NCBI GenBank assembly: GCA_040285855.1
Contig: JAUFOQ010000006.1
Location: 992,001-1,056,000, forward strand
Length of the DNA stretch: 64,000 nucleotides
DNA from: Eukaryota sp. GEM-RC1
Taxonomy: Eukaryota
Direction of reading: 5' to 3'
Shown: in pieces, positions 3,201 to 64,000 of the stretch
Position numbering within the stretch: the stretch's first letter is position 1
How the letters are laid out: each line of letters starts with the position of its first letter
Notes under the pieces: model-generated
What the model saw: only the letters and a program-made list of their open reading frames with translations
What the model was told of the DNA's origin: nothing
Databases searched by the model: none
Translations under genes and position numbers: made by a program

Positions 3201-3350
3201 ACATGTAGTTATAACTTGGTGTCTTTGTGTCTTCTGATGAATGAAGCTTCATGGACTTGATGTCGTTGACCTTAGTCTCATTCCAGATAGCATCTGATAG
3301 AATTGAAAAATGCAGTCAAAAATGACTGAAGACACAGCAGTGTATTACAC

Positions 3351-3681: not shown

Positions 3682-3683
3682 AC

Positions 3684-11520: not shown

Positions 11521-11539
11521 CAGTTTTTTTATTTTAAAA

Positions 11540-17100: not shown

Positions 17101-20100
17101 TGTTGTAGTTCGAACTTGTCTACTTGTACATTTGAAGTTTTCTTTTTTTCTTCAGTTTCTTTTATTTCTAATAGTCCCCTATCAATGGATCCTTTTCTGT
17201 CCTTTTCTAAGGCAAACTTGGTGTTGTTTAACTTGCTCTATCGCCTGCACTCGTCTGCGAGCTCTACTTTGGCTCTATATTGGTCATATTTCACTAATGA
17301 TCCTGCGTGCTACTCCCCAATCAGTTCGTCAGTACAGCTCACTCAGTTCTGTAAAGAGAAACTGGACTCTTATTTGATTGCTCCGTCAACCCAAAATATC
17401 ACGTTACCTACCATATCACGTCACTACCTTCCGTTTTCTTACTTAATTGAATTAGACAAGTCTGAGAGCTTTAGTTCTATTCTTGATCAAGTGTATTTCC
17501 TACAATATTCAATTTTTCAAAGTCAAAAGAAGTTGTCAATTTCCTTAATGTATCACTTTTTGAAAAAGTGTTTGGATATTTTGTTTTTAGTCCAGCGAAA
17601 TATCAGTTCCAACCTCACTTATTGTACTAAGATATGTAAAACTGGTCTATATCTTCTCCAAAAATCTACAATCAATCAAAATTGATTGATCCTCTTTTCC
17701 ACCGATATTCTGTCCTCATCTTCTCATTTGTCTCTCTTTTAGTTGAAAACCAAACTACGTCTCTTCTTAAAGATTTAATATTCTCTTATCCCATCGTTAT
17801 TACTCTCAACTCTGGTTCTTTCTTTTTGCTTCTCTGCTCATTAATCGATTCACCTAACAATTTCTCACCGGATTTTGTGTTTGCTTTGAAAAAGAATATT
17901 TTTTCAACACAAGAGTTGGCTGAAATGGCCTGGAACTTTCCCTGTTGTTATTTGACTGGTCAGACGCTTTCCACGCAGAAGACACGGGATTTTGTTGCAA
18001 AGATTAGGAATTCCTCAGATGTGTTTGGAAATATTTTAAATATTCGCTCTCTTTTGAATGGTATTGGAAATGATCCTGTGGATATGGTTGGTCGATCATT
18101 TAGTCGAGTTCTATCGTCATTTAGGTCTAAATCAACTGAATTTCAATCAAAAAGTTCAAAACTTACCCTTTCTGCCGACGTTTCGACTCTCTTTTCCACT
18201 ATATTTAAACCTTTTATTGATCACATATCACTTCTACTTTCCAAAATTGGAACTAGGCCTTCCGATTATGAAATTTTTAATACTTTTGTTATCGACATTA
18301 AGTCCTTCTTTAATGTACTTTCAGCTGCACTCCAAGCGACAGCTCAGAATAGGCAGTTTTTCATCAATCATTTGAACTTACTGTTACCTCGATTACGAAT
18401 TATTTTTGCTCCCATCCAATCAGCTTGTTCACAACCCCTTGCTATTCAATCAAATGTAATTGATCAGATTCAAGGTTGCTACTTGCCTCTTTTAGGACAG
18501 AATGGGTTGTATCAATCTTTTTTAATTGATTCAGTTGAATCCAAACTTCCTGTTTTGGCTTCTCAAACAATGCCCCGAATTTTAAATATTTCCACAAGTG
18601 CGGGAAAAGTTTCTCTTCTGGTTAAACCTGCTGATCCCTCTGCTGAAATCACCACATCACGTATTCTAACTGTTCTCGATTGTCTTCTTGCCTATTCTGA
18701 ACAATCAAAACTCCATACTCCCAAATTGATCTCCTTTTCTGATCAGGATTCTGAATCCTGTGCCGTAGGATCTTTCTTATTACCAGGATCGTCTTTAACT
18801 AAGTTAGTTGAGCCCTTCATGTCGCCTTTCAATCAAATCAAACAGGTAAAATCAAAGACAAAATCATCATTTGATAGATGGAAAGTGATGTCATGGATTT
18901 ATTCACCGTGTCAGTTCAAAACCCAATCACTTTTTTGGTCGCTTTCCCCTGATTGGTTGACGTCATCTATCACGTCATGGTTGATTGGTCTAGGTGATCG
19001 TCATTTAGGAAACTTTCTTCTTTCAAACGTATCTCAATCTCCTTCCATTTCCGACAAAGTGATTGTAACCCTTGATTTTGGTCAAGTTCTTGATTGCTCA
19101 CGTTTCCTTCCTGTTCCAGAACAAGTTCCATTCCGACTTTCTCCTTTAATTCTTCGTTCCCTGCCTCCATGGAATCGTGGATCTTATCTCAGTAGCCATT
19201 TAGCCTCATCACTTCAATCACTTGCCAAATTTGACAGTTTGATTGCTAACTGTATGTCATCGTTTAAAACTAATCCACCTCTTCTTGCGTTAAAGAAAAT
19301 CAATCAGCTTCGTGGATCACAATCAATTTGTCAATCAGATTTGACTGGATTTTCTGAGCTTTATAACTCACTATTAGTTACTGTCAAGTGTGTCTCTGAT
19401 ACACGTCATCAAATCAAAGAATTCACAAGAAGTCAATCCAAACAGCTTAAGGTTCTCCAAGACTTCAAAGACGTTGCATCTAAGTCCGATCAATCACTGC
19501 AATCAACTCTTTCCCATCTCAACAAGCTACGTGATGACCTACAATCTCTAATCCAATCAATTCCAATCAACGACACGACTCTTTCCACCATTAACAGTCT
19601 CCAATCACAAGGATTGTCTGCTTTATCAACTCTTTGTCCTTTGATCTCTTCTAATGTCCAACTTTCCGTTCCTAAGGGATTACCTCCAGGATTATTTGGA
19701 AATCCTCAGGAATTAATTAAAAATGTGCGAAAACTGATTTCTGAATATCAAACAATTTTGAAAAACTTTGATGGTCGTTATGGAGATTTCAGTTCAGTAA
19801 AAGTGTTGCAACAATTTTTAAGTAATTTTGATGTTTTCAAACAAGCTATCGAAAAAGGTGATACGAATTTTGTTGTCCTTGAATCTTCCAAATTTTTAAA
19901 CTTCATTGCTTGTCAACCAGAGGATGACGAATTGCGCCAACTGCAGCTTTTCTTCAATATTTATTCTGAAATTCGACAATTTCAATCAACCATCAATCAA
20001 CTATCTAATCTTAATAAGTTACCAGCCACTATTCAATCTATTTTTTCCACTTTTGCTCTCGGTTTTACTAAACTTGACGAACCTTCTGCTAACACCATGT

Positions 20101-21578
20101 TTAACGACTTCTTCCAGTTTGTTTCATCAAATCTATCAGTTTCTGAGGATTTCAATTTTGATCATATCTTAAATTTTGTTTTAGCTGTGGAATTTTTAAT
20201 TTTGATTGTAGAGTTTGTTTTTGATTTGAAGAATGATAATGGTTCCAAAGCCACTGTCCGACTTTATTCAGGATTTTCAACATTTGTGCTCAATTATTTA
20301 ATTTGTGGACATTTTGTCACACTCCATCCTACGTTGGAAATATTTAAATCCAAATTTAATTCTGTATTAAATATTCATCTTTTCGACAAGGAAATGAGTT
20401 ACATCTATTCTGATTTAAAGTATTTTGACTTCTCATGCCATGATCAATCACTGATTGATTGTTTTGGTCTCGTCATGGACAAATTCCTCACGCGTTTCAA
20501 AGACTTGGTTTCAAGCCCGAAAACAACCGCCTCCAAATTTTTAAATTTTTCCGCTTTATTGAATAACAGAATAGCTGCCATCAAGAAGAAATATTCTTTA
20601 CTATGTGAGAACTTCATTAAGGAAAGTGAATTGTCCAGTGTATTTATCAAATATGCTTGGTTCTGGGATCGATTCTATGTGGAGGACATTTTATCACATC
20701 ACACATCTCTTCAGAGTTTAACACCACAGTATTTTATTACAAATTTTAATTCTTCGTTAAAAAACCTCGAAAAATCAATGACGAACCCATTGCTCGATTC
20801 TAATACTAAGAATTCAGTAAGTGTCGCTATTTCTACCGTGAGAATTATTCTGCAATTTGAGTCGTTCAGGAATTTCCAAGGTAAAGTTCCTTTATGTGAT
20901 AGTATCCGTGAATTCATACAAAGACTCAGCAAACACGGTGAAAACCAACTAGAAATGATCCAGTATTCATCTCAAGAGGAAGTTCTGCTCAGAATCAACA
21001 AGAATCTTGAAGACTTGACTGGAGTTTTGACCACTCAATCACGTTCACTAGCTTCTTCTACTGATTCGTTTGCTCGGCAATTCGATAACGTTCTAGTTCT
21101 TCAAGAAATCATTGAAAACGAATCGGAGATATTTGAAAAATTCCAAAACATCGTCTCCATCATGTCATCAATCAAAATTGATTCAATCGACGATTGCTTC
21201 GGGCAACTCGGTCAAGTTCTCTCTTGTTGGCCTGACCTCGACAGCCTTATCGAAGCTTTCTCGGCTCTCGTACTGTCACTCTCCTCTGCATTGTCTACAT
21301 TGTCCGAGTCTAAAGTAGACCAAGATTTAGTATCTCAGAATGTTAAAGATTTCATTCGTGGAGATATCTCAGCTTTTGTTGAGAGGAAGTCCTATGCACT
21401 GACTCAGATTAAAAACAGTTTGCTTAAATTAAGAGGGTTAATTACTGAATTACACCATTTGGATGTTCCTCTGGTTGAGTCTTTGGATATGGAAGAAGTT
21501 GCCACGCGATTAGTAGCTAATGCTTCTAGTATTGATGTGCTGTCACAAATGTACATTGGTTGGATGCCATTTTGTTGA
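14116..21578 (+). CDS. PIKK-family kinase, SMG1-like (frameshift near 17680)
   Basis: Helical N-terminus; IGLGDRHLGN, LDFG, LPVPEQVPFRLS; ~780-aa insertion before the FATC (VLSQMYIGWMPFC*), an architecture typical of SMG1. Confidence 0.8.
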
Positions 21579-22236: not shown

Positions 22237-23437
22237 ATGCTCGATTCTTGTGTTTCACCTACTTCAACTGCTTCCGGTATCACCGAAGGGACGAAAAAAC
22301 CAGTGAATGACATCTCTATTCAGCAAAGTCTGTTGATTTTGATACATCTTCACTTGTTGAAGCGTCGTTTTCAGTATTCAGTGTATGCTGTAGATGTAGA
22401 CGGTGAAGAACTTCATCAACATGTTCTCAATTTGAAGCAAGACCTGGCTCACCACTTTCAGACCATTGGCTACATAAGCAATCTTTTCTTTGATACTGCT
22501 GTATTAGCTGTTAGACTTTTTTCCAAACAACCACCATCCCTATTGCTTCCACAGATCTTGCTCACCTACATTCATTTGCCACTTTCTTTGGAGCAGAGGT
22601 ACGGTCTGTTTCCCTGTACGTTGAAGAGAGATTTAATGTCGAGGAGTATATAAGTAGTTCGGATATCATTTCATCCTTGGATTTAGTCTTGCAACATGGT
22701 AAAGATCTGGAATTCCTCAACTGCAAGTCTTCTCAGTTTTTCTCCAACCTTAGACATCTTCATGTCAGCGTTGATGCCCCTGTTCTTATGCCATTTGTTG
22801 AATTGTTGAAACTTAATACTTCAGTTACCAGCGTTCATTTTAGTTATGAGTATTATGGAGATGAAGGGGCTAGCACTTTTTAGAGGTTTTGAAAGTTAAT
22901 ACCACAATTGCTACTGTTAATTTGAGTTACAACTTTATTAGAAATGAATGTGCTAGATCTGTGGCAGAGGTTTTAAAAGTCAATACAACAGTGACAAGTA
23001 TTGATTTACGTGGAAACTCTATTGGAAATGATGGAGTTACAACACTATCAAATGCATTGTTGGTTAATTCTACATTAACAAATATCAACCTACGTGAAAA
23101 CTCTATTGGAAAAGTTGGAGTGATCGCACTGGCAGATGCGTTAAAAGTTAATTCTACTTTGACAAGTGTTGATCTAGGCAAAACCTCTATTGGTAATGAC
23201 GGAGCTAAAGCATTGGCAGATGCATTGAAAGTTAATGTTACATTAAGAAGTGTTAATTTAGAGGACAACTTTATTACTGCTGAAGGAGCAAGAGCTTTGG
23301 CAGAGGCATTAACTATCAATAATTCATTGACAACTATTAATTTAAGTCGAAATTGTCTTGGAATTGAAGGTTATATGGCACTAGACGAGGTTCAAAAAAA
23401 TAAGGGAATAGTCATAATATTGGTGTCAGAATGTTAA
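22237..23437 (+). CDS. NLRC3/RNI-like 28-residue leucine-rich repeat protein, frameshifted (possible pseudogene)
   Basis: Repeats of the form LKVNTTVTSIDLRGNSIGNDG..ALA.AL; three ORFs in different frames. Confidence 0.85.
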
Positions 23438-25769: not shown

Positions 25770-27222
25770 TGGGACTGTGCAGGTTCTGGTTTAGGTTTCA
25801 AGCCAAACATTTTCTTACCAAACCCAGCTGAACCTAAACCCACAATCCATAACCAAACCAAACCGAAAACGTTTTTTAATAAAACCAAACCACAACTATA
25901 CATTTAGCTAAAATGAATTACATTTAATTTCAAAAACCCTCTGACTCTGATTTACATCTTATATTAACGATCTTAACGCTTACATGGACACTTCTTCTTG
26001 GTAGCCAAGCAACTTCTGTTTGTTGCGAACAAGTTTTTGTTCTGCTGGACGCACAGTTACAGAATTTAGAGCTTCTCTGTCAGATGAAAGATCCATGAAC
26101 CTGTCAGTCTCAAGGATTAGAGACGATTTTGTTAAAAAGAAAACTAACACTACTAGTAGTTGTTTGTGTAACTCGAGCAATGATTTAATAATAACGCTTA
26201 TCTAGTACCATTGTTAATGTTTCAGAACACGCAAACATTGCATGATCGTGTTGCAGTTACTACTTTAGTACATGAGGTGAAGATAAACACACCTTAGACT
26301 TGTCATTCAAATGTTCAGTGGTCATGAGTCTTCTTTTATTGAGAAGAAAGATCATTTCTGATTACAACACAATATGTAAGTTTGCAATTCTTAGACGAGT
26401 ATGTAATCATACACAAAGACATCTTTTGAGTAAAGATATGAAATTATTGATTGATTTTCATCGAATAAAATAGCTCAATGTTAGTTCGGATTAATGCCCA
26501 CTCGACTCGACTAAGCCTCTTACTTCAATCGACTCCACTTTTGTAAGTCGAGTCGAGTCTAAGGTCCAGTGAACTTAGCGTGGAGCGGAGTGCGACTCGA
26601 CTCGGCTGAGTTCAGTTGAGTCCAATTTATTGACTGGTGTTTCAATACTTCAATACAAAAATGTTGTCTTAAAATTACTCAGTTGACTAATTTGAAAGCA
26701 AACTAGAAGATAAGCTGAAGAAATGTGTTGAATTTCAAAACGGATACATATATGCTAGACTTGTCATGGTACCGTAATGAAGTGTTGTCGACGTCTGTTT
26801 TCTCAAATGCAATCGGGTCACGTTAACGCCATTTTCGGTCAAGCTGTCGCAACCCCTCACGACGGGTCAAAGCTAACGTTTCTGAATTTTTGTCGATTCC
26901 GTCATGTGTATGTATGTTAAACTAAATGAGTGTTGGTCAATGAATGTTTATTTCGAAGCTTGAGTTGTTAAAGATATCCTACAGTGATTGTTCCAATTAA
27001 AAGCTTCAGCAAGTTACGGGAAGTCCAATATTGTTGCAAGATTTTTTGTTACGAGTTTTACGGAAGTTGAATCAATCTATTGCGCATCTCTTTAACTATC
27101 AGGGATATATTTCCTGTACATTTGATCCAAGATTTAAGGATGTTCTGCCAAATGAGATCACTGCTTCAGACGTTCAAGAATATTACAGTAGGCTGCTGAA
27201 AGAACACCAATACCACAGCTGA
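25770..27222 (+). mobile_element. Decayed hAT-like remnants (subterminal AAACC and ACTCG repeat tracts; transposase fragment)
   Basis: AAACC-rich tract 25800-25892, CGACT/ACTCG tract 26500-26605, FDPRFK motif in ORF 27031..27222. Confidence 0.45.
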
Positions 27223-28179: not shown

Positions 28180-29880
28180 AACTGAAGACCAGTACCAAGA
28201 ACTTCTTGAGCCAAAATTAACCGATATTTTCCGTGCTGATTTGAAGCAATCCAAAATATTTGACTTAGTTGTGATTTCCAGCCATGCTCTAGTCTACGCT
28301 GCAGAAGTAAAACTTGATCAAGGCAAAGGAGACTCGTTAAGTCAAATCATGCAATAATATGAATTATTTTGGGAAAAGCACAGAAATGTATTCACACAAT
28401 TTAAAAATTGTTGTCGTTTTTGTAGTAAAAATCAAAGATTATTTTCTCAAACTCTATAATGTCTAAGAGTGATCAATTGATCCTCTTCTTGAACTGGAGG
28501 GAAGAAGAACAAAACACTTCTGGTCTGAAAGTAGTAACGACTCTCTACAAAATTTGACAACTACAAATTTATCAATGTTTAAAATAATTAATTGAAATCC
28601 TGGAAATTACTTCCCGAATTATAAAATTAACGACCAACTCAAAAAAAAACAAAGTCATCAAAATTAATAACAATTGCTTTTTCTGATGAAATTCATCCCC
28701 TAGAACAATCAAAGTGTAGCCAATGGTAGGAAGTCTTAACAAATCAATCACGATTCTAGCACTCGTATCAAAAGGTCCGACTCTGATACCAAAGGGAATC
28801 ATCATCACAGACCAATCAGAGAAGAGATCACTATGATATAGGAAAGAACATAACCTGATTCACGATCGTTATAGGAAATAAAGAAAGTATAACGTGTGAA
28901 ATCAACAAAACCACTTGGTGAAGAACCAAAACAATTAACAACATATTCTGAAAAGAAAACTCAAGGTCCTCTTGAATTCTTTGATTTTGTGAATCTTTGA
29001 TGGGATTCAAATTGATTTTTGACCTGGTGACGTTAGATCTGGACGCAACGGTTGATCCATAGTTTGTGTTATAGAAGAATCTGTTGAGACCGTACATTAA
29101 TGTTTTTACATTGTAGTTGGGCAAACGTACTGCAGAGTGAAGTAACGTCATCAATCACATCAGAATTTTGACCTGTTTAGACTGATTTTGATCTCGAAAC
29201 ATCAATAATTAGTGGTTTCTGATCAATATCACCAGAAAAAGTGGAATATCAGGAAATTTAGAGCTTCTACCATCATCAACAAAGTAGCTCAATCAATCAA
29301 TTGGATTGCAATCGGCAATCAGAACAGATTGTTTCCAATTGCGTTCCAAAAGACTGTCCAGAATCAACAACATCACCAAGAGAATCAAAATCAAAATCAA
29401 CATAATCACCATCAATCAAACCCTCAATCAAAAGATCCCTAATGACACACTTATGATAATTGATACCAGCAGAGAACACAATTACTGAGAATTATCGAAT
29501 TAAATCAATTACTCTAGGAATATTAGCAAGAAGTCTCTGGTCATTTGTGAAGTGGTTCATGGTGGGGTAAGTAATAGGACCAATGGAGAGAAACCAGCAG
29601 TTGGTGGAAGCATTGTAAGGGGAAGTGACAATGTTCAAAGAGGATGTGACCTGAAGAGATTCTCCTGGGTGAGTGTAGACGGATGATAGAAGTCTCTGAG
29701 TTCAAAAAGAGGGGATCTTGATGAGAGGTTTAGGAGAGTGAAGTCGTAGCAAGAAAAGGAATCAAGAACAGTATTAGTACGAGCTTTGAAAGAGCCAATG
29801 CTTTGGTCTAGATTGAGACGACAAGAAGACTGGTCGTTGGAGGAGTAGATAGTGAAAGAGAAAGAATTGGCTGAAAACAA
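28180..29880 (-). repeat. Dispersed repeat family, copy A (inverted, partial)
   Basis: Reverse complement of ~47470-49190 and ~56250-57605. Includes a degenerate PD-(D/E)XK ORF at 28180-28440 on the + strand. Confidence 0.9.
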
Positions 29881-31890: not shown

Positions 31891-33007
31891 ATGACTTCTA
31901 CCCCACATCTTCTACCTTTATCAGTCTCTCTTCATTCATGGAATGGCGATTTCTCCAGTATGCCGTAATATCTACTTGTTTATTACAGAAATTGCTTTCG
32001 TCGCAACTGGATCTTCTGATGTTTCAATTTATGAGGTCACTTTCTCTAAACCAACTAATGCCGTCTTCATGTACAATCAATCTCTTTCTGTTCATGCACA
32101 AACCATCATTGGACTCGATTGGTGTGGAGTAACTAATCGAATTGTTACATGTTCAGAGGATTGCTCTGTTCGTGTTTGGCATTTCAACGAGACGTCGAAA
32201 TCTTGGATGGAGAAAATTGTACACACAACCACTCGCGCTGTTCTCAGCCTCCATTGGTCTCCTGATGGTCAACATATAGCTCTAGGACATGGTCAAAAGG
32301 CTGTTTCAGTCTGCTACTTCGATGAATCGAACCAGTTCTGGACCGATGCCAACAGCAGTATCAAGAAGCCACACAAATCGGCAGTTACTTCAGTAGCTTG
32401 GTCTCCTAACAACCAACTAGTGGCTTCTGGTTGCACAGATTGTCATGTTCGCGTGTTCAATCCCTCTGCAAAGAAGGTCATGGCTGACGTGATAATTCCT
32501 TCTTGGGTTGATTCCCTGTCCTTTATAACTAATAACGAGATTGTATTCTCATGTCACAACTCTACACTACACTTTGTCACTATAGAACCATATACTCACG
32601 AAGTGTTGACACTTAAAGGCCTTCCAGAGTCTTGCATTCAAGTTGTTAGCCAAGACGTTATCGTTGCAGGGGGATACGATCGTAACCCACATTTGTATAA
32701 AAGATCTGACGATGGTACCTGGAGTTTCTACTCCGCTCTTGACCAACCAAAGTCCAAGGCTACATCAGCTCTAAGTAAGTTAACAGCTAGCTTTGAACAA
32801 GTTGATGTATCTGGTTCTGCCAAAAAGCCCGATTATTCTCTTAATACCATTCATCAGAATACCATCACGTGTATGTCTTTGATCAAGGGACGTGTGCAGA
32901 AGGAAACATCGAAGGACGATGTGGTGTCTGAAACATTGGTCACGGACACTGTGTTGTGTACTACGAGTTCTGATGGCAAGATGGTGTTATGGAAGCTTGA
33001 GTTGTAA
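31891..33007 (+). CDS. ARPC1: Arp2/3 complex subunit 1 (p41, WD40); intron 31958..31988
   Basis: Spliced N-terminus SLHSWNGDFSKIA..DVSIYE, IIGLDW..TNRIVTCSED, VCYFDESNQFW, IKKPHKSAVTSVAW, TIHQNTIT. Confidence 0.9.
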
Positions 33008-33049
33008 ATTCTAATAATAAATTTATTCTTTTGTTCCTAATGTTATACT

Positions 33050-33203
33050 GTGAATTTCATTCCAAATGCATAAGGACATAACCCTTCACATTTTCATGAT
33101 CTCATGAGCAAGCTCGTAAGCAAACTCATGAGCAAAACTCACAGTTTGAACAAATAAATGTCCGCATTCGCAAAGTCTTTTAAGACGAGCTAACTTCATA
33201 GAT
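33050..33203 (-). ncRNA. Putative Fanzor omega-RNA scaffold; guide would extend into ~33030-33049
   Basis: Directly 3' of the Fanzor stop. 13-bp stem CGAAUGC-GGACAU / AUGUCC-(UUAU)-GCAUUUG; hairpin CUCAUGAGU..GCU-UACG-AGC..GCUCAUGAG; GUCU-UAAA-AGAC hairpin; internal GUGAA complementary to terminal UUCAC. Confidence 0.7.
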
Positions 33204-36087
33204 TCAAGATTCCTGATCTTTCTGGTTTACGTGTGAGTCCTTGGGTACATCTTTCTTAGGCTTATTTGGACAAGTTGCTCTGTTATGTCCAGGTTGAAAA
33301 CATATACCACACTTGTTAGGACCTCTGACTTTTGTTAGAGGACGCTTTGCTTTACCCTTACCCTTACTCACAGTCTTTTTCTTAGGAATCTGATCTGTAT
33401 TCCCGCCATCCACGACAGGTGTTGTTTGAGATTTTGGTCTCTCGAGGATGGCAGGTCTACCTTGACCTTGAATGGTTCCATCTACAATATTGTAAATATT
33501 GATAGCAGAATTGAAGTCTCTATTCCAGAGGACATGACATTTAGCACATTCAACTAAGCCCCATGGTGAGACTTTTTTGCTCTTCAATCTTTCTTTCGAT
33601 AATGGCAACTGGTCAGTCCATTCATCATCAAAGTTACGCTGCACAATATTGTCTAATTGATTGTGTTCCATAATTTCCTTTTTTAATTCTTTTCTCTTCC
33701 TTCTGTAACTTCTTCTTCCAATGAGGATCAGTGACTTTTATCCTTTCAGGATTGGAACAGATACCTTCGTCGTTTCTGGAAACACACGCAGAACAACATT
33801 TGCTGGTCTTAAATTCATCAACTAGGAACACTTTAAATCCAAATTTTTTCAATAATTTCCGAATTGAAGCACCTTTCACAGTAGATGCTTTACCTCTTCT
33901 TCGACGAAAAGCAGTGTCGTTCCAGTCTCCATACCCAACAATGACTTCATCTGGGTTACCAAACTGGAGAGCAAATCTGTGAAGCATGTTTTTTCACTTC
34001 GTTCCTTTCTTGAATACTGTGTTAAGCGTCTACGTCTAAACCACTTTTCTTCGTAAATTCCTGCAGTAGTTCTTTGATCAGTAGTGGGTGATCGTAATAA
34101 GGAACAGGTAATTTCTTTACCAAGAACAAAAGCAGAATACTGAGTCAATTCACAAGATTTACTACCTGGTGAGTTAGAGCCCCATTGATCTAAAATTTGT
34201 TGCCCATTTATGTCAATGCGTCTGCCATCTGGAATGTGAATAAATTGGGTAGAGTATTGTTGTAACCGTTCGGACTCAGATAAACGGTGGAGATTATATC
34301 GTCTTATTTTCTTCTCCAGCTTCCTCTTCTTTCTCTTAGCTCTTTTTCTTTCCTTCCTTGTTTTTTTCTTTTCCATGGAGACTTTTTAATATCGGCATTG
34401 CGCTCCCCAGCAGTGTATCTGAATACTTTCCAATTATCACGATTTTTCAACTTGACAGTTGATGGTTTGTCAATAGTGGGTGCGTCTTTCCAATCCTTCA
34501 ATTCATTTTTTAATTTTTTCAAGCTTCCTTTTTTCTTTGATGATTTTGGAGAAATCTTTCTTCTTCTGAGTTTGGCTGATGTATCGAAACCTTCGATTTC
34601 CTTTTCCTCCTTAGATTTTAAAGAAGCACAGTACATCAAATCATGCTGATTAGGATCAATAGCAACAATTCTTTTTGATTTCAAATTTAAGTTTTGAATT
34701 TCTGTTGAACTCAAAGAATCAATGTACCTTTCAGTACTGGTGTGGTCAACCGCTTTCACCTTCTTATGAGGATTTCCTCTCCCATCAAGCAGATCTTTCC
34801 GCATCATCATTAAACTACAGCTAACTCCATCTGTAGAAATAGAACTGTATTTGAAGTCATGAGACAATGACTTTGGAAGACACTTTGGTTTCAAAACTGA
34901 GTGCCAAATATCTTTTCGAACGTCATCAAAGTTACCTTTAATTTCTGATGTATAAACTTCTTTAAACCATGAAGTATCCAACCTAATATGATTAGGAATC
35001 AATGATTTTGTCAGAGGAAAAGGATTATTGGCAGTAACACCAGTACAAGAGTCTTCAACAAGACGTTTCAAATACACTGCATGACTTAAGAATGTCAAAG
35101 GATCTACTTTTTCAGCATAATAGATTGTTTTTTCCATTTTACCTTCAAAAAAAGTAAACAAATAGTTAAAAAATAGTAAACTCAGTCTAGAATTGGGATC
35201 AAGAAACACTTCAACATCTTGAAAATTAATTTTTGAAATTTCCCCATTAATGATCAACTGTCTGACTTCATTAAGCTTTGTACACAACTCTTGTCGTTGA
35301 TTCTTATCAGTAAGCTTGTTAAGTCTATCTTTTTCAGGGTAACCAAATTAAATACCTGAAAAACATATTCGTGAAAGTGTTCACTCATGTTAGTCTTGTA
35401 ATTCGTTATAATTTCAGTAGCCATGTAATGCAATATACGAGATAAACGATGACTACTGGGAAACACAATCCTATCAAGTCCAACAGATCGAGCAGCTAGT
35501 TCTAAACGAGGAATGTAATGCATCAAGAAGTGTTGAGCAAACTGATTTTGAGTTGAGGCCTCATTTGGTTTAGAAGTTATGTTTGTTAACGATTCTTGTA
35601 CAGTCCTAATATGATTCTGATTGTTTACAAGTTTGTGGTCCCTAATCGTCATCATAGACAACACTTGTTCCATTGATTTCAACGTAAAAAAATTCTTCCA
35701 GTATGGCAATTCAATTTTGGCAGTTTGAATTTTAGTCCAAAGGTCAGGTTCAGGTTAAGGTTCATCACTCGCATCTTCAATATTTTCTAATTTAATAGGA
35801 GGAGTAGCAGCATCGATAGACTCTGAAGGTACATCTGTTTCTTCATCAGTTGACTCATCTGTATCAGAATTCATTTCTTCCTTAACAGTTACATTTGGAA
35901 CAGTAGCAGGCAGTAACTTCTGAATGTATTCTAAAATACCTGAATGGTGAAAATTATGAACAAAAAAATGTTTCAAAAAGAGAGAACCACGGACTCTTAC
36001 TTGGTGAGCTCTCTTAATACGAGATTCAATAAATTTAACCTTCGCTTTGGATACAACATTGTCTAGTCGTTTCTTAACCACTTTCAT
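33204..36087 (-). pseudogene. Fanzor (Fanzor1-like) RNA-guided RuvC endonuclease, ~960 codons, with four frameshifts and one in-frame TAA as assembled
   Basis: RuvC-I VAIDPN (~34655), ISTDGVSCSL, VIVGYGDW (~33930), rearranged RuvC-II VDEFKTSKCCSAC (~33815), zinc finger CAKC, RuvC-III WNRDFNSAINI (~33517). N-terminal VVK..L.....I...H....G.LFL. Confidence 0.92.
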
Positions 36088-37480
36088 TGGTGACTTTGAA
36101 CGTAAGGTTTGCTTTTGGGATCCAATAGGTCAGCCAACAAGTACTCAATCAGAGGTAATTGTTGAATTGAGTTCATCAACAATAGCGGTCTTGTCGATTC
36201 CTTGGCCCAAAGTTCATTTACTTTCTCCAAATTTCTTACAAATTTCTTTTTAATCTTATCGACCTTCACTTTGGGATTGTCTGGAACTAAAACATTAATA
36301 CTGTCAATTATGCCATGCAAGTTTTGGACATTATTGATCAATTGAACTTCATCAGGATCAGAGTCATGATTAAGTTCTTCCAAGCGTTTGACAGTTTCAT
36401 TTTTAGAAAAATTATTCATTTCAAGAAAAATTTGAACAACATTTTCCAAAAAACGGCCACCAGTAAAGACATAAAAATTCTTCAGTACAGCATTCAAATC
36501 GAGACTAAAAAACGGACCAAAAGTTGTTTCCTTACACCATTTGTTGAACCAAAAGGGAATATAGGGTTTAAATTCTGGAAAAGTAAACGTTGTATTGATT
36601 TTGAGGACTTGACAACGTGATACAAGAAAGGGAAATGTATCTAAGTGAAAGTCATAACTCACAAACAATCGTGGACAATGTTGAGTAATGAAGGAGATGA
36701 AGTTTTTAAGCATACTGGATTCACTATCTGAAATATGTAAAGTACACAAATCCAAGTTTGTAGTATCAAAATTGCCATGAGAAAATAAATGTTTTTCATT
36801 AAACTCATTGTGATCAATGATCTGGATGGAAATTGATACAATCGGATCAACAAAAGAATCACGTTTAACTTCTAATTGATCTTCAGCTTCACCTTCAACA
36901 GTTTCAATGTCATCATCATCTTGAACAAGTTGAACATTTTTGCCATTAATTCTTTCTTTTTTGGCAAAATCACTTTGAACATGAATTTAACAAAAAGTTG
37001 GCAGATTGTTCCAAAGTAAAGGGGAATTAAGAAAGTCTTGAATTTGTATTTCTTGTTCGATAGGCTCAGTGTGTAGATTTACTTCCATTTTATGGATTTC
37101 TTCTTGAATTGGCGATGGATACGACATAAAGGAGGCCTGTGATTTTGGTGGTAATTCAGATGGTGGTAATTCAGATGGCGATGATAGTTCAGATGGTGGT
37201 ACTTCAGATGATTCCAATGTGGACATACGGCGGTAAGTCTTCCGTATTGGAGTGCCACCAGTTGAAACAAGGGAGCTGATAGTTCTAAATTGATTTCGTT
37301 GAATTAAAGGTGAACCTCGTGGTGATGGAACATCTGAAATTTTGGCTTTACTTTTTTTAGTGCTTAAACCAGTAGATGTTATAGTGCTAGCAAGACGTGA
37401 ACCTGTGAGAGGAATTGAAGTGGTTGGATGTTCTTTACCGGCAGGAGGTTGAATGGGTAACGATGGTACAATAGGATCAT
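36084..37480 (-). CDS. 5'-truncated ORF with a low-complexity N-terminal part and a family-B DNA polymerase-type 3'-5' exonuclease-like domain; possibly fused to Fanzor
   Basis: Single frame with one TAA at 36987: ...DDIETVE...FVDPIVSISI...ISDSESSMLKNFISFITQHCPRLFVSYDFHLDTFPFLVSR...FSLDLNAVLK...LENVV. The stop overlaps the Fanzor ATG (ATGA). Confidence 0.65.
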
Positions 37481-37799
37481 AGTTGTAGCAAACCAGCAGA
37501 GTTGTAGCAAACCTTAGTGTTTTGTTTTGGAGGATAAGATGTCAATGTGATGTATGTGTTGTAGGATGGTTGTACAACGTTGAGTTTATTCATGACATGG
37601 ATGAACACGGTTCACAAGTCTAAGAACGAATACCTGCAAACACGTCTCTATCTTGAAAGAAGCTCAACACTTGATATCAAAAGATGTATGGAATCCATCA
37701 AAGAAGGTATAAGTGAATCAGTTTGGGGATATGTGGTTATGGGGTGAAGAGTTTTTGGGGTAAAATGATTTTGGGGAGTATGCACCCCAAATGAATTCA
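37475..37799. repeat. Transposon terminus copy 2
   Basis: Near-identical to 3351..3681. Confidence 0.9.
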
Positions 37800-38800
37800 G
37801 CAGTAGTGTAATTACGGGGTTTAACTCATACTTGGCAAAATAGCCGAACAAATACCAGGTAACCATTATTCACTTTGCCTTCTTTTCTAAGTAGAATAGA
37901 AAGCATTTCCAACACATTTTTCAACCATTCCAAGGTTGTAATTCCTCAAAAACATCAAGAAGATTGGGTTGTTCTTCATCATCAGACGAGTTTGTGACAA
38001 CAATTTACTCTTCAAGAACACCTACTAGTACTTGCACTTGCAAATCCAATTCATGTTCCAAGAATATATCTGAATCTAGTCAATCATTTAAGATTGGTGA
38101 TTTTGAGTTAACGATCGCCAAAACTAGTAAGCTCCACGGTAATTACTTTGGGCCTCTTCTAGTTGTATCACTTGATTCGAAATCTTCTGTGTCACTGAAG
38201 AACCTGATCACTGGATATGTTAGTTACAGATGGTATCCTCGTTGTCTTCATCAAAAACACCTTCGTTCTCGAGATGAAGTACATCAACACGAGATCTTTG
38301 ATCATCCCATATGTGCGTACTCCTACTTCCATTGGTAATTAATTAGTGCGTTATGTTTCAAAAATAGGGACAACACGTAGAAATAGATACAATTGAACAG
38401 TACATCTTTATCCAAAGATTGTTCTGGTACCATTTTATTCATAAAAATACAGAAAACACAGCATTAATTCAAAAAAAATACAAAAAATACAGTATTTATC
38501 GAGACTGAGAAAATACAAAAACACAAAAAAATACAGTATTTGTATTTTCCAAGTATGGTTTAACTCTTACATCGGAAGGTGATGACCACGTCTGAATCAG
38601 TCTGATTCAGACAGACTTGAACTATGCCAAAGGGTGTGACTTGATGTTATATAAATGTTACGATCCGCATTTACTATTCCCTTGACGATTTCGTTCAAAT
38701 AATCTTACTTTGAGAGATATTAAAACAGTAAAAGGTTAACGGGTAATCATCTGAGCAAATGACAAGACTCTTACAATACTTAATAAGCACTAGCCACCTC

Positions 38801-44993: not shown

Positions 44994-45728
44994 ATTATGT
45001 ATCGGAATTGTATGAACTTTCTTTGTCTTCCATAAACTAAAACATATAATTACAATTGATTTAAAAATGCGTAAATACTTCTAACATTATTCTAATCCGA
45101 ACTACTTAATAACTAATGCACCCACACTACACGCACTCTAGACGTCACACAGTATTATGCAGTACATAGTTTATCTCCATTGTTGATGTGCTATTCGTTA
45201 AAACGAGGCTTCTTCTTGTTTGACAAAACTCTGTCTGAAAGACTCTTTTGTTCACTGTTTACGTTCCCTGTACAAGGAAGAGTATGATAAGTGTGGTGTA
45301 TAAGACTTCGTATTGTACATCATGACTCTTCACTACGTCAGTTGCTCCAACACTGTTAGCCAAAGGTAATTGTATAGTCTCCAGTAGGATAATTTCCATT
45401 TATAAACTCCTTTTACCCTCTTTCATCCATATCAAGGTATCAACACATCACTATTAAAAAAGTGAATTTGAAGACGAATTCTTCTAGAAAAATGGCTCTC
45501 GAGACTTTCACAGAGCTATTGTAAAGTTTTCAATTAATGCAATTTTGTGTATTGGGTCATAGTAACACTGTTTTTTGGAGCCCTATTTGGAATTGGATTA
45601 TCATTATGTTACAACCATAGTTTTCAATTAATAGCTTCATGTCTCAGTAATTCCTAGAATTATTAGAGGTACATGAAACATCCATCTTCAATTTGTACAT
45701 TTAATGAGTATATATTATTTGTAATAAT

Positions 45729-48700
45729 TGTCACGCAAAGTACATGTTTGTGGTAAAGTGATCAAACCCACAATCAGAGAAACTGATCTAGTTATCCTTA
45801 GAACAAACACCGCTACGGTTCAAACAAACATCTTGGCGTCTTCTTGGAACATCAATAATCAGGGGTGGGGAAAATTGGATTGGCAATCCAATATTTCCAT
45901 TATATTAATATATATTGATACCAATATACAATTGGTAATCTAGGTCGTGTATTGTACATTCTGTTCTTAATTGTTATAGTGCACTATATTGGTAGTCTTG
46001 TTTTCATATTGATTTCACACGAAACTATATTCTTCTATATCTGTTGGTATTTTCTCGTCTATTGCTACTATGAGAAAGCTATCAAATATGGATTTGATAC
46101 TGTTTTTTCGTGAACATCGCTTTGGGAAAGGAGAATATTAGCAGTTATGTTAACCTCAATTTTTTTTCCAGGGCGTTTCTCCTGCATAAAAAAAGTCGTT
46201 AAGGCCTGCAGTTGTAATTGCACTACAAAATCACACTTTGGGACTTCCAGATTGTCTACACAATTTGTGATCAACATTGGTGTGCAGCAAATGAAGAAAC
46301 TAGTGATGACGAGTGAGTTTGTCATTAGTACCTATGAAGAATTAAACCATAAAATGACGTGTCATTTGTTGTTTCAAAATGTAACATAACACTTAAATTC
46401 ATCAATGAGAATGTTTCAAATCAGGGCCTGGAAAAATTGAATTGCCAATACAATTACTTGGACACATTGGTATGAACCATTGATTGGCTCAACATAAATC
46501 ATTGAAACATTGATTGATATAATGTTCAAACATTGCAACATTGGCCAATTGTATTTTGCGAATTATCCTATTTGACTCAACACTACAAATCGCACCACCA
46601 ATATGCAGCTGATGTAGATAGTCGTATTAACATGTTCTTTGCGAACAAAATACATAGATCGTATGATTTGGCTGTTCTACTACTAGTAGTAGTGGTAATA
46701 CTTGAAATATTGGGCCAATATCACTCATTGAAACATCGTTTCGACCAATATCTAACATTCAAACATTGATTGGGCCGATATCTAACATTCAAACATTGAT
46801 TGGTTTCATTTGAAACATTGTCATTGGCATTTAAATACCAATCATTGACATTGGCAGCCTGGTTTCAAATGTCACCTTGTCAAATGCTCATCAATCTTGT
46901 CATGTCACTCTATCTACAAATTCTACAACATCAAACCCAAGGACGTATTTCCTGAAGTCTTGTTCATGCCTTTTGTTGTTAATGACAATGTCGCTTCCTT
47001 CTCCGATGATTGCTTCTATTCTGTTGTCTGCATCGCATCAACCATTCTGGATTCAATGCTCGATAGTACTCCCCAGTATTTTGGTTCCAAACCCAAAGTT
47101 TCCTTGTCAGTTTGAATTAAGAGATTGCTGTCCAACAGCCAAAGTACCTTAGAATGTGCTTCTCTTGCACTTTTCTACCTCAACAAACTCCAAAAGTCCT
47201 GTCCCCATCTTCGATTCACTGGAAGTCTATATTCGTCGTTTGTATATGGTTGCTTTCATGCTATATATATTTGAACTCAATAGAGCTAATCCTGTCGCCT
47301 TTCTACCATCCTTCAATCTCTTTCATGTACAGCTACAGACTTCAATGTCTCTTTCTTCACTGACTTTTCAGTTGATGATGTCTACCCACAATCTTCAGTT
47401 TCTTTTCCCAAGTCTTTTGGGATGATGACTCTGCTTCGAAATGATCTTCTGAATCTAACTACTTAAATTCTGGGACTTTTACAACCACAATCTACTCCTC
47501 CAGACCAGTCTTCTTGTCGTCTCAGTCTAGACCAAAGCATTGGCTCTTTCAAAACTCGTACTAATACTCTTCTTGATTCCCTCTCCTGCTTTGACTTCAC
47601 TCCCCTAAACCTCTCATCAGGATATCCTCTCTATTTGAACTCAAAGACTTCTCTCATCCGTCTACGCTCACCCAGGAGAATCTCTTCAAGTCACATCCTC
47701 TTTGAACATCGTCACTTCCCCTTACAATGCATCTACCAACTGCTGGTTCCTCTCCATTGATCCTATTCCTTACCCCACCATGAACCACTTCACAAATGAC
47801 CGGAGACTTTATGGTAATATTCTTAGAGTGATTGATTTAATTCGATAATTCTCAATCACAGTATTTTCTACTGGTATTAAGTATCATAAGTATGTCATTA
47901 GGGATCTTTTGATTGAGGGTTTGATTGATGGTGATTATGTTGATTACTATTTTGATTCTTCTGGTGATTGTTGTTGATTCAGGACAGCTTTTTGGAACTC
48001 TATTGGAAACAATCTGTTCTGATTGCAATCCAATTGATTGATTGAACTACTTTGATGATGGTAGAAGCTCTAAAGTCCCTGATATTCCACTATTTCTGGT
48101 TATACCGATCGGAAATCACCATTTTTTGATGTTTCGAGATCAAAATCACTCTAAACAGGTCAAAATTCTGATGTGATTGATGACGTTACTTCACTCTGCA
48201 ATTCGTTTACTCAACTGCAATGTAAAAACATTAATGTACGGTCTCAACAGATTCTTCTATAACACAAACTATGGATCAATCGTTGCGTCCAGATCTAACG
48301 TCACCAGGTCAAAAATCACTTTGAATCCCATCAAAGGTTCATAAAATGAAAGAATTCAAGAGGATCTTGAGTTTTCTTTTCAGAATATGTTGTTAATTGT
48401 TTTGGTTCTTCACCAAGTGGTTTGTTGATTTCACACGTTATACTTTCTTTATTTCCTATAACAATCGTGAATCAGGTTATGTTCTTTCCTATATCTTAGT
48501 GATCTCTTCTCTGATTGGTCTGTGATGACGATTCCCTTTGGTATCAGAGTCGGACCTTTTGATACGAGTGCTAGAATCATGATTGATTTGTTACGACTTC
48601 CTACCATTGGCTACACTTCGATTGTTCTAGGGGATTAATTTCATCAGAAAGTCGACATTGTTTTTAATTTTGACGACTTTAGAGAAGGTAAGTCCTATTA

Positions 48701-49223
48701 CGAGTTTCAACCTTCATCACAATCTCAATTTGAAATTTGCATTTCAGGAAGTAATTTCCTGGATATTGAATTTAACTCATATCAATTAAATACTTTAAAT
48801 TCGATTTTTTTATTGTTTTCAAACATTTTATATATTGGTAATTGTCAAAATTTTGTAGAAAATCGTTACTACTTTCAGACCAGAAGGGTTATGTTCAACT
48901 TTCTCTCTAGTTCAAGAAGCTCTTAGAATGTGAGAAAATAATCTTTGATTTTTGCTAAAACAACGTGTCGAACACAACAATTTTTAAATTGTGTGAATAC
49001 ATTTCTGTTCTTTTCCCAAAATAATTCATAATACTGCATGACTTGAGTTAATGAGTCTCCTTTGCCTTGATCAAGTTTTACTTCTGCAGCGAAGACTAGA
49101 GCATGGCTGGAAATTACAGCCAAGTCAAATGTTTTTGATTGCTTAACATCAGTACCGAAGATATCGGTTAATATTGACTCAAGAAGTTCTTGTCATTGTT
49201 ATTGCTTAAGTTTTGCAACATCG
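45729..49223 (+). repeat. Dispersed repeat family, copy B
   Basis: Colinear with 54941..57636 and inverse to 28180..29880. Confidence 0.9.
46422..46861. mobile_element. ~440-bp TIR insertion within repeat copy B
   Basis: CAGG...CCTG ends; flanking direct repeat (G)TTTCAAAT; absent from copy C (empty site near 55645-55660). Related fragment near 25400-25470. Confidence 0.75.
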
Positions 49224-50924
49224 GTCATTTGAACTGCTTTTCGCACGCAGAGATGCTGAGAATTTGGCAGGGGGGAGTCTAAGGTAGAAGATATGCTAGT
49301 TGGATGAGTTTTTCCAGCGTCAATGAACCAGGATTCTCATTATAATAATACTGGTACTTACCAGCCCAAATTGGAAGTCCTTGGAAACGTTGTTGTTGTT
49401 TAACCTCAGGAAAGTCATCCTGGAACTGCATAGGAGTTAGAAGGAAATAAGGGGTTAATGACAACCGCATAACGTCATTGTGAGGATCATTTATGGACGG
49501 TAAGTATTCAGAGTTTGATCCAGGAACAGTATTCAGTCCATCGGAATTACTGTATGTAACAACAAGAATTCTTTTACCGTATTCCAACGTATTCTTCTTT
49601 TTGATATTCTTTTCTGTTAACCAGCACCTATTATATATTATTAAATACTATTTATTGATGATACAAAAACAACAACTCTTCAATAAGGTTAGGATTCACA
49701 ACAATACGGTCTTTTGGTTCATCTTCAAGAATGTCATAGTCCTCATCTTGAGGTTCAGCAATAGGATGATCAATTTCCCAGGGGATCACAAGAACATTTT
49801 CAAACATCTGCTCCACTCTTCATTGTTGGAATTAAATGTCCGACAAATCACCAAGCATTGCCAGACATGTGTCTAGAACAATTTGTTTTTTAAATGAATA
49901 CTGGCCTTGGTATCGGTGTTGTTTTACAACGATACTGATCAAAATTGTGAAATTAACAAAATAACAGAAATTAAAGTTTGTATTAGGATATAATTAAAAT
50001 GAGAGTAAGTACATGGCTTGACATTGAATTACGATTGCAATAAACAGATTCGTTTTTTGACGGTGTTGGTGCTTCAGGATCAAGACGAAAAAGGTCATAG
50101 ACTGGATGTGGGGAACGGACTATATGATAAAAGAACTACAACACGTGTTTATGTAAGAATACGGTATTCTCGCACGTGTTCTGCCGTACTCCGTACGCAC
50201 ACGCAGGCTTGCCACTTGATAAAAACCGTTTAAAACGATTTGTATTCTTGTCAACGTATTGTATATACTGGATTATATTCTACTTTTCGCAATTAGGTAG
50301 TTCGTTTGATAATTTGTTTTAATTGTGTTTGTTTATTTGTTTTTTTCTTATTATGTGTTTTTCTCCGCACATAAATCCGTTTTTTTTATTCTGGATTGAC
50401 ACAAAAAGCATGACTTTCTACTCCATTTTTGTCTTAATGTGATAGGTGTTATGTCATGTAAGTTGTTTCTGACCAAGAAAAACTGAAACAAGGCAAGAGT
50501 ATTGGTTGGTGATACTACTCCCCTCCCAGTACAGCACGTGCTCTTTGGTTCTGTATCTGAGTGAAACTACCTTCAAGTGCACTCGAACAGTGTTCCTGTT
50601 GCATACACCTTGGTATCTTCCCGTCCTGAACACGTGATCATCGTTAGATGAGCACTGTACTTCATCTCCTTGGTATTATCCTTCCAATCTCAAAAGAACA
50701 TAGCTGTAATGATCGAACTATGAAAGATTTGGGTGATGAAAAGGAAATGAGAAAAAGAAGTGAAAAGTTGAAAAAGTTGATCTGCCCTTTTTATTAAATT
50801 CGAAAAAACGTTTTTATTTTTGAGTAACGTTTCCTACAAGCCTGCGCGCACGTGCGAAATACGTGAGGCAACTGAATAACACGTCCGCATTTCGAACTAT
50901 GGTTACAAACGACCCCCTCCCACT

Positions 50925-51293
50925 TCATTCTATTCCTGTTAATCTGAGCTTATTCTGATTCTTGTTGGATAAGCCGAACCTTCTTTCGTTAATGAAACAG
51001 ACTTTTTTAAGAATATTTTAGAAATTTCGAGAGTACAACTTCGAATTGTAATTACGTTGCCAATGTGCGTTCTAAAATGTACTGGACTTGCCACGTTTAC
51101 ATTAAGTAATCATTTTTACATAAATGCCAAATTGAAATTTGATTTAGGAATATTGAGAAAATGTTAACAAATGACAACAAGGGCGGTTAAACGCAACTCT
51201 TGTTGAGTACTGAACTCGACTTCATTGTGATGTTTGTCTTCCAGAACTTCTAATTTAGTATTTACAAGTTCCTGCAATCTCAAAAAACTCAAT
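50925..51293. repeat. ~370-bp dispersed repeat, inverted copy at ~58325..58690
   Basis: Visible reverse-complement similarity (e.g. GTGCGTTCTAAAATGTACTGGACTTGCCACGTTTACAT). Confidence 0.85.
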
Positions 51294-52075
51294 ACTGTAT
51301 ATATCTTTTGAACAGCCAAGATCGTCCCTTAGCTGTGGATATACTGTCTTTTTAAACGTGACTTTTGTTTTAAAAGGATTAATGGTTGATACACGTGAAA
51401 ATCATGCAAAATTATATAATTCCAGAAAAAACTCTGACTTGTTCTTTGTGAACTGTTTCAGAGTGTGACTACACACAAAATGTTGTTGCTGATTCATCAA
51501 CAAAATTGGAAAACAAAGTGGCAAAGAAAAAAGGAGCTAATACCCTTATATGGACATAGAATCCTGTCATCATGTTCTTTTGACTCATATTACTGCAAGT
51601 AAGTTATGAGTTACTGTACATGTATTGTTTTATTAGAGACTCTTTGTATTGGTCATATTGGCAATGTATTGCTAATCACAATCAGTCGACCAATCAATAT
51701 TGGATTATCAATTCTATATTGACCATCCCTGGTAATAGTACTCGACTAATTCTGAAACAATTGAGCAGGAAACAATCCTACATTGAAGCCAAAAGATACA
51801 TATTATGCTCTCACAACATCAGAATACATTTAGTAATTTCGACTTACAATACTTTAATACAGAAAATGGTGTCTTAAAATTACTCAGTTTGACTAATTGG
51901 AAAACAAAAAAGAAGATAAGCTGAAGAAATGTGTTGAAGTTCAAAACGGATACATATATGCTATAATAATCCTTTTGTTTGATTCCAACTGTCATGCTCA
52001 TGTCTTGGATTCGTCCAAGTCGTTGTTGAAAACGAAGTTGGATTCGTTGTGTCCAAATTTCGGGATTCATTTCTA

Positions 52076-63890: not shown

Positions 63891-64000
63891 GAGTAGTTTT
63901 TAAGCATCACTGGTATTTTTGAAGAAGCATGGTATAAGTGTAATTCCGAATTTTCGTTGACTGGTATTTCTGTAATAATCCCTAATAAATACACTCAACA

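Follow-up and report, generated by a model that had tools for sequence, protein, structure and literature searches.

A probable front-truncated Fanzor1 element with a fused polymerase-type exonuclease domain in Eukaryota sp. GEM-RC1

The DNA analysed here, a 64,000-nucleotide stretch of contig JAUFOQ010000006.1 of Eukaryota sp. GEM-RC1 (the window), carries in the region 33050..37799 what appears from sequence comparison to be a front-truncated copy of a multi-copy Fanzor1 element. Its coding part is a single broken frame on the minus strand (33204..37475), which runs from 37475 to a stop codon at 33206-33204 and amounts to about 1,425 residues when translated with an X at each of seven breaks. 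The frame takes in a linker, an exonuclease domain of the family-B DNA polymerase (PolB) type, the Fanzor1 nuclease and a CCHC tail. The read-through is 92% identical to residues 389-987 of the related protein record P0055, and 93% identity is found to residues 1-644 of P0035, a record of 644 residues. Taken as a whole, we consider it probable that this is a front-truncated Fanzor1 copy with the exonuclease fused in one frame, likely non-autonomous, moved by a TA-targeting transposase acting in trans and serving to cut donor sites. An earlier sequence-only reading had recognized a Fanzor of about 960 residues. The frame pieces from 36090 downward do sum to 961 codons, but the true frame extends 5' to 37475, past a fifth frameshift in the A-run 36116-36113 and another TAA at 36989-36987, so that its start is not near 36100. 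That reading also missed the fused exonuclease, as well as a 2A/Ulp1 leader that is found in the family and is absent from the window copy.

The Fanzor1 core (33435..36108, minus strand) comprises WED, REC, RuvC and TNB parts, as judged by homology, with charged insertions. A 347-residue piece of the frame matched SpuFz1 (E = 1e-7) and GtFz1 (E = 0.028) with the RuvC-I motif aligned, and a 119-residue piece that spans the GDW and DE(F/Y)(K/R)TS motifs matched PpFz1 (E = 1.1e-4) and SpuFz1 (E = 4.2e-4). P0035 matched SpuFz1 at E = 1.7e-15 and PpFz1 at E = 2.3e-10. A profile built from six relatives gave four matches to solved sequences at E <= 1, three of which are the Fanzor1 structures SpuFz1, PpFz1 and GtFz1 and the fourth Dicer (E = 0.1); no TnpB, Fanzor2 or Cas12 was among the profile matches at E up to 1. 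The window protein is almost certainly a Fanzor1, an assignment over TnpB, Fanzor2 and Cas12 that was made by best matches and not by a tree. The identity first proposed from motifs is thereby upheld: the stitched protein aligned with the Fanzor1 RuvC domain rather than failing to do so, and the RuvC Asp, Glu and Asp are retained.

The catalytic residues can be placed individually (all on the minus strand). The RuvC-I Asp (34657-34655) lies in an IDPN motif that aligns with IDPN of SpuFz1, and the RuvC-III Asp (33518-33516) is placed by its position in NRDF. The rearranged RuvC-II site (33814..33936) consists of GYGDW (33936-33922) and the relocated Glu of DEFKTS (codon 33816-33814). This Glu was measured to lie 38-40 residues downstream of the Gly, in agreement with the earlier estimate of about 40, and it stands six residues ahead of the first CxxC, giving the ExxxxxxCxxC pattern described for rearranged RuvC-II sites (PMC10711439, PMC10530073). 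Fanzor1 is defined in PMC10530073 by a RuvC-I Asp, a Gly or Pro at the canonical RuvC-II site, a Glu about 45 residues later and a RuvC-III Asp; the RuvC-I Asp, the Gly with its relocated Glu and the RuvC-III Asp are all present in the window copy. The DPN, GYGDW, DEFKTS, CxxC and NRD motifs of the sequence-only reading were thus recovered where it had placed them, and the alignments bear out both the rearranged RuvC-II signature and the retention of all three catalytic residues. Its zinc finger needs some revision: both cysteine pairs are present (CSAC at 33795-33784 and CAKC at 33548-33537), but they are about 80 residues apart, and a further CCHC knuckle follows RuvC-III. The elements of the original Fanzor motif, D-X(125,275)-[TS][TS]-XX-C4 finger-X(5,50)-RD, all occur in order, but the D-to-TS spacing of 281-284 is slightly above the published range of 125-275 (PMC3627910) because of the charged insertions. 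Three GEM-RC1 records hold all three catalytic motifs in one uninterrupted stretch of 644 residues.

Upstream of the core lies a domain (36111..36995, minus strand) that Pfam, the ESM Atlas and alignment assign to the DEDDy 3'-5' exonucleases of family-B DNA polymerases, with its catalytic acids replaced. The 300-residue open reading frame (ORF) at 36084-36986 matched PF03104 (DNA_pol_B_exo1) above the cut-off (E = 2e-7), the top ESM Atlas matches of the exonuclease piece were all PolB exonuclease clusters (scores of 0.93-0.96), and the weak PDB matches of the ORF were nearly all family-B polymerases. An index-free search of 1.84 billion representatives with the exonuclease piece retrieved eight proteins, every one of which carries PF03104 and is named from either Eukaryota sp. 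GEM-RC1 or TZLM3-RCL; a search for near-length homologues with the same piece returned none among 657 candidates. Since both names are treated as Skoliomonas species in PMC11316075, the host is likely a skoliomonad metamonad, and the host-type genes in the window are eukaryotic.

The two species differ at the exonuclease active site. In the window copy and its family the ExoI D-x-E reads H-V-Q, the ExoII Asp is Thr and the ExoIII YxxxD reads FxxxL, whereas in the alignment P0051, P0061 and P0063 of TZLM3-RCL keep the ExoI D-x-E, the ExoII NxxxFD and the ExoIII YxxxD. Exonuclease catalysis is predicted to have been lost in the GEM-RC1 lineage. A DDIET sequence considered as the ExoI motif was rejected, as the alignment puts ExoI at IHVQ. 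Among solved polymerases the best match of P0051 was to Pol delta (E = 4e-4), too weak to name a domain donor. Single-sequence AlphaFold2 models were unusable, with a mean predicted local distance difference test score of 35.7 for the 300-residue exonuclease piece and of 35.8 for P0062.

It is highly probable that the exonuclease and the Fanzor nuclease form one fused polypeptide in this family. Five records cross the junction between them in one frame, and P0044 stops there as the window copy does. In TZLM3-RCL, P0051 (1,473 residues) and P0061 (1,479 residues) each hold the exonuclease and a complete Fanzor in a single record, with the motifs FDVET, GYNCDKFD, YCxND, IDPN, GYGDW, EYRTS and NRD; they are 29% identical to the window protein over the core. 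Alternatively, the two parts could be adjacent genes, or a Fanzor inserted by chance into a polymerase fragment, joined only by gene-prediction software. Gene models can splice over breaks, and the window copy and P0044 both end at the junction. We nevertheless regard this as very improbable: P0045, P0055 and P0056 cross the junction without residues missing relative to the window DNA, the domains follow the same order in two GEM-RC1 subfamilies that are more distant (P0001/P0005 and P0046/P0057/P0060) as well as in the TZLM3-RCL family, and the polymerase catalytic domain PF00136 was not matched in any record scanned. The fusion thus appears to be common to both species.

This architecture seems to be without an earlier report in the literature searched, a scope that leaves most subscription journals and Repbase outside. 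Fanzors often carry extra domains (PMC10530073, fig. S1B); the terms exonuclease, DNA_pol_B and Peptidase_C48 do not occur in the text supplements of that paper, and its figures, which this search did not cover, could show such a fusion. Papers retrieved for Fanzor with Ulp1 offered no natural fusion in their titles or the starts of their abstracts, and those on Fanzor and exonuclease since 2023 were, as far as the same parts tell, engineering papers and reviews. Nor did the literature searched report 2A or Ulp1 with Fanzor or TnpB, 2A in a DNA-transposon-type element, or Fanzor together with metamonads in one paper. An Atlas search with residues 270-1473 of P0051 gave only scores of 0.75-0.76 to viral Fanzor-like clusters, which is a lead only.

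The fuller relatives carry further modules ahead of the exonuclease. DLTADG-DIESNPGP occurs near the N-terminus of P0044, P0047, P0054 and P0055, and DG-DVEANPGP in P0051 and P0061, so that six relatives have the D(V/I)ExNPGP core together with a supportive upstream motif; P0063 is a further 2A-like record, but it reads NLGP. The core and the DLTxDG class of upstream sequence are described for StopGo elements in PMC12846837, and 2A-like motifs sit near the N-terminus of retrotransposon ORF2 (PMC3708506). The fuller relatives likely contain a 2A/StopGo-type peptide with a putative role in ribosome skipping. Downstream of it an Ulp1/C48 domain (PF02902) scored above the cut-off in P0044 and P0055, with its His, Asp and Cys motifs seen by eye, and below it in P0047, and was not matched in P0051 or P0061; in the fuller copies it is likely to be a SUMO protease. 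The window shows no match to these N-terminal parts (leader and Ulp1) and no ExNPGP in six frames. In tblastn searches with P0044, P0053, P0054 and P0055, homology to the fuller copies starts abruptly at 37475, equivalent to residue 389 of P0055, and what precedes the exonuclease is a Pro/Ser/Thr low-complexity linker (36996..37475, minus strand). The window copy has certainly lost its 5' module of leader, 2A peptide and Ulp1 domain. At the other end, the tail after the Fanzor core contains a CCHC zinc knuckle (33270..33311, minus strand; Pfam zf-CCHC_2, E = 0.0027, below the cut-off), which is also found in 19 of the 24 C-terminal GEM-RC1 records examined and is lacking in the TZLM3-RCL proteins. 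Both the leader and the tail seem to be modular. P0047 seemingly has a pair of Ulp1-like domains, P0043 and P0024 each show a pair of CCHC knuckles, and the P0046 cluster begins just ahead of the exonuclease.

The family is present in many copies. The C-terminal piece retrieved six clusters with 35 records from at least ten contigs of GEM-RC1 (24 of the 35 were listed and read), most of these approximately 35 records being 88-95% identical; 25 of the 63 proteins fetched match the window read-through at 85% or more, and the three 644-residue copies are mutually 95.5-96.1% alike. The eukaryotic, multi-copy and transposon-borne setting that is a trait of Fanzor1 is thus found in this family.

The window copy contains five frameshifts, not four as first counted, each amounting to one base in an A-run, and two TAA stops, both of which sit where a T-run meets an A-run. 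On the minus strand and from the 5' side, the in-frame TAA at 36987..36989 corresponds to Leu in all four paralogues that cover the site. The A-run at the exonuclease-Fanzor junction (36113..36116) is open in five records and shifted likewise in one (P0044). The TAA at 35755..35757 corresponds to Lys in the only paralogue that covers it (P0055, EPKPEPD); it had been read as a real GAA-to-TAA lesion, a reading that is no longer clear, given the Lys of the paralogue and the position at a T/A run boundary. The remaining shifts are at 35330..35334 (open in four of four covering records, all of a 55-70% subfamily), 34369..34372 (open in four of four records, in two via a nearby compensating shift), 33989..33994 (open in six records, the same shift in P0041) and 33690..33693 (open in 13 records, the same shift in P0030).

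Because all of the breaks lie at A/T homopolymer runs and are open in relatives, most of the seven are probably assembly errors. The assemblies behind the named relatives were made from Nanopore R9 reads corrected with Illumina (PMC11316075). In host-type genes of the window, the frame likewise changes between overlapping ORFs in five pairs, each time over an overlap with runs of at least four bases; one of these pairs may reflect an intron. Host-type genes split between frames include Pif1 helicase, XPG-like and LRR genes at 2-1689, 3651-5840, 14116-21578 and 22515-23437, among them one that we take by motif to be a PI3K-like kinase. It is unlikely, though far from negligible, that the copy is instead a real pseudogene of the same family and architecture, decaying and truncated, with true slippage and point mutations. 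The loss of the 5' module is certainly real, homopolymers mutate in vivo too, and no GEM-RC1 record is full length. Set against this are the position of all seven breaks at homopolymer runs or their boundaries, the 92-94% identity to paralogues with catalytic residues kept, and the similar breaks in neighbouring host-type genes. Recoding of TAA was rejected, since paralogues read Leu at the first stop and Lys at the second and TAA also terminates host ORFs, and programmed frameshifting was rejected because the shifts are open in most relatives. The suggestion that the frameshifts are partly assembly indels is supported as the likely reading, apart from their number.

The outer limits of the element are less well defined. 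A putative left-end segment of about 330 bp, non-coding (37476..37803, minus strand), joins straight into the middle of the family ORF. It begins with the left arm of an inverted repeat (37803-37779, with TA at 37805-37804) and a short G/C hairpin, and is 95% identical over 334 nt to a second copy at 3351-3684 of the window, which sets the outer edge at 37799-37802. The inverted repeat is imperfect (22 of 28 positions; 37805-37779 against 33046-33072) and has TA outermost on both sides (37805-37804 and 33047-33046). The repeat and the flanking TA would place the element ends at 37803 and 33048. By chance, a repeat as good was obtained in 122 of 2816 cases in a 90-nt test and in six of 1280 windows when the left 30-mer was used, which includes six bases found by the alignment itself. 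The claim that both ends of a complete element are visible has therefore to be reduced to an imperfect, TA-flanked repeat around a copy that is truncated in front.

We lean towards a deletion inside the element, reaching from its left end to residue 389, as the origin of this junction; that the left 330 bp are foreign to the element is somewhat less likely. In a fuller form of this second reading, to which we give slightly lower weight again, the segment would have replaced the true left part, as a short repeat of its own or as the terminus of some other element, so that the Fanzor element would show no left end here, and the carrier could be MULE-, Helitron2- or Ginger-like rather than TA/TIR (TIR, terminal inverted repeat). 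The second copy is not TA-flanked and has tandem arrays next to it instead of the family leader, a MULE transposase remnant lies in the window, Ulp1 domains occur in Ginger1 and Mutator transposases (PMC2836005), and Fanzor1 is known from MuDR and Helitron2 elements (PMC3627910). Conversely, the outer edge of the segment falls within a few bases of an arm that pairs with the 3' tail, TA flanks both arms, and an internal deletion would give the same junction. Ginger-like TG...CA termini were rejected, as no direct target duplication accompanies such ends. A Helitron represented by the Pif1 ORF at the window start and sharing the left segment was unsupported, with no Rep domain visible and no CTRR end on the segment. 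The copy at 3351-3684 has its outer edge 2-5 bp away from what looks like the start codon of an XPG/asteroid-like gene on the opposite strand, and in place of Fanzor sequence it is followed by 15-nt and 14-nt tandem arrays (2407-2994 and 3113-3201).

At the right end, the stretch from the stop codon to the right repeat arm (33048..33203, minus strand; arm 33072-33048) is a candidate omega-RNA scaffold, by analogy with SpuFz1, whose omega-RNA is the region between stop and right repeat (PMC10432273). The whole 157-nt tail folds with z = -2.61 (four of 200 shuffles as good), the 101 nt at 33050-33150 with z = -3.74 (none of 200 shuffles) and 33040-33159 with z = -4.98. The structured non-coding tail noted earlier is thus confirmed, and its role as omega-RNA stays that of a candidate. 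A short tandem palindrome accounts for part of the fold strength, another structured stretch is located within the ORF (33400-33519, z = -3.9), and Rfam returned no family for the tail, with one chance-level match (E = 0.12). From the anatomy of Fanzor loci (PMC10432273, PMC10711439) the guide is predicted to be the host flank that starts with TA (33028..33047, minus strand), which falls in non-coding DNA 3' of a convergent WD40 gene (31895-33007, plus strand; Pfam match), some 40 bp beyond its stop codon.

A TA-targeting transposase acting in trans likely moved the element, which is likely non-autonomous. The only relative resolved at the DNA level, locus L001, is 32% identical and lends mild support to TA ends: its element (34-7371) is of Tc1/mariner type, with 28-bp TIRs, TA flanks, a DDE_3 transposase, a 1,208-residue AAA-domain cargo protein and a 700-residue Fanzor. 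L001 was the one locus found among at least 596 stretches in a metagenome scan with alignment A4; a metagenome scan with P0035 gave none in 35 stretches, and viral scans gave none in two (P0051) and none in 73 (alignment A4).

Several observations weigh against the reading preferred here. L001 is distant, and its ends say little about the window family. No Tc1/mariner transposase was found among the window ORFs scanned, and the transposase that is present is a MULE. The inverted repeat is weak, as a score at least as good is reached in 159 of 1280 windows once the left end is set independently, and in the second copy of the left segment there is neither TA nor a right end nor any Fanzor sequence. 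The records of the relatives come from automated gene prediction, where a called intron could mask a break in P0051 or P0061, and no GEM-RC1 record spans the whole protein. Three of the breaks recur in other records (P0044, P0041 and P0030), which would fit inherited mutations no less than systematic error. Finally, the larger family has a dead exonuclease, a sign that this activity is dispensable and not required for spread.

In the mechanism that we propose for the Fanzor1-exonuclease element, the 3' tail and the flank starting with TA would be transcribed as omega-RNA and guide. After excision of the element the re-joined site would be cut by the nuclease some 20 bp inside the right flank, and sister-chromatid repair would then copy the element back. 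Since Fanzors cut near the far end of the target (PMC10530073), the broken end on the side of the target-adjacent motif, which is predicted to end in TA, would be left with a short 3' tail unmatched in the donor. An active fused exonuclease of the proofreading type would trim this unmatched tail in cis and let copying start, while the dead exonuclease of the window family could do no more than bind DNA ends. In yeast repair, short tails of this kind are removed by proofreading exonucleases. Through the 2A peptide the enzyme would be freed from its hydrophobic leader during translation, and the Ulp1 domain may strip SUMO from host repair or silencing factors. The donor-site cutting role of Fanzor1s is itself proposed and not proven (PMC10432273). 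By analogy with that proposal, we moderately favour retention of the element through RNA-guided cutting of empty sites; the exonuclease as tail trimmer is the more doubtful part. The wider picture, in which skoliomonads carry giant Fanzor1 polyproteins with an active proofreading-type exonuclease that processes cut ends, release by ribosome skipping and an optional SUMO protease, is tentative and falls just short of an even chance. The proteins could also be domesticated or defensive effectors that cut invading DNA or silence elements under RNA guidance, with the exonuclease degrading the ends. A large multidomain protein that combines a deSUMOylase with a nuclease and is kept in two species at 29% identity would suit such a role, but dozens of dispersed copies at 90-96% identity are typical of recent transposition and the guide position lies in an ordinary host flank, and we consider defence improbable.

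The best structural-database matches to the window protein were SpuFz1, from the SPu-1 element of Spizellomyces punctatus (PDB entry 8GKH), and PpFz1 from Parasitella parasitica (9CF0), with which it shares DPN, the Gly and relocated Glu, the C4 finger and NRD. Like SPu-1, the element is multi-copy, has no transposase and has a non-coding 3' tail between the stop and the right end (PMC3627910, PMC10432273); TA flanks are putative in SPu-1 too, according to the same papers. The SPu-1-1p protein has 633 residues and its element clear inverted repeats of 30-33 bp, whereas the window copy has about 1,425 residues and an imperfect repeat only. SPu-1-1p also lacks the N-terminal PolB-type exonuclease and the CCHC tail, as well as the 2A motif and Ulp1 domain of the fuller copies and their longer protein. 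The nearest relatives outside the skoliomonads, at 28-32% identity, are virus-type Fanzor1s of Tc1/mariner elements of the PGv-1 type, here L001 and the P0002 cluster; they have about 670-700 residues and no exonuclease domain. L001 has TA-flanked TIRs, but it brings a DDE transposase of its own and an AAA cargo gene, each in a separate ORF. The individual modules have parallels elsewhere. In Dada transposases of Laccaria and Ectocarpus a DNA-transposon enzyme is joined to a 3'-5' exonuclease of the DEDDy class, for which processing of cut 3' ends has been proposed; there the exonuclease is inserted inside a DDE transposase, whereas here it is of PolB type and N-terminal to an RNA-guided RuvC nuclease (PMC3706591). 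The 2A-like (StopGo) peptides of non-LTR (non-long-terminal-repeat) retrotransposons likewise lie near the N-terminus of a long ORF (PMC3708506), and Ginger1 and Mutator transposases likewise have a C48 (Ulp1) protease fused to a transposon enzyme (PMC2836005).

The Fanzor1 proteins compared here (SPu-1-1p, P0002 and L001) are single-purpose nucleases of about 630-700 residues. The interest of the present case rests on the family, above all the intact TZLM3-RCL proteins, more than on the window copy. The two species, one with an intact and one with a dead exonuclease, offer a natural comparison for what Fanzors do after cutting and for how elements are copied back, and P0051 and P0061 are uninterrupted public records, which makes the test direct. 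If the exonuclease acts on Fanzor cuts, the protein would be a naturally evolved nuclease-exonuclease editor. The giant polyprotein, if real, would be nature's equivalent of the engineered Cas-exonuclease fusions, and StopGo would for the first time be seen in use in a Fanzor element; a working 2A would extend StopGo recoding, rare in cellular genes (PMC12846837), to such elements. The finding also places Fanzors in a metamonad group.

Other repeats and genes are present in the window. A repeat of 1.7-3.5 kb occurs in three copies of 79-89% identity (28196-29865 on the minus strand, 45645-49223 and 54862-57636), in one of which the two ORFs scanned gave no Pfam match. Two shorter two-copy repeats are about 91% identical (50920-51292 with 58328-58695, and 26640-26757 with 51844-51963). 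The MULE transposase is broken and has a SWIM finger (61526-63906, minus strand). An ORF at 10881-11528 (minus strand) gave no Pfam match and presumably, by motif, resembles the restriction-like endonuclease end of a non-LTR retrotransposon. At 51983-53901 (plus strand), two overlapping ORFs read by eye encode a RING finger followed by kinase, ubiquitin-like and carbohydrate-binding-like domains.

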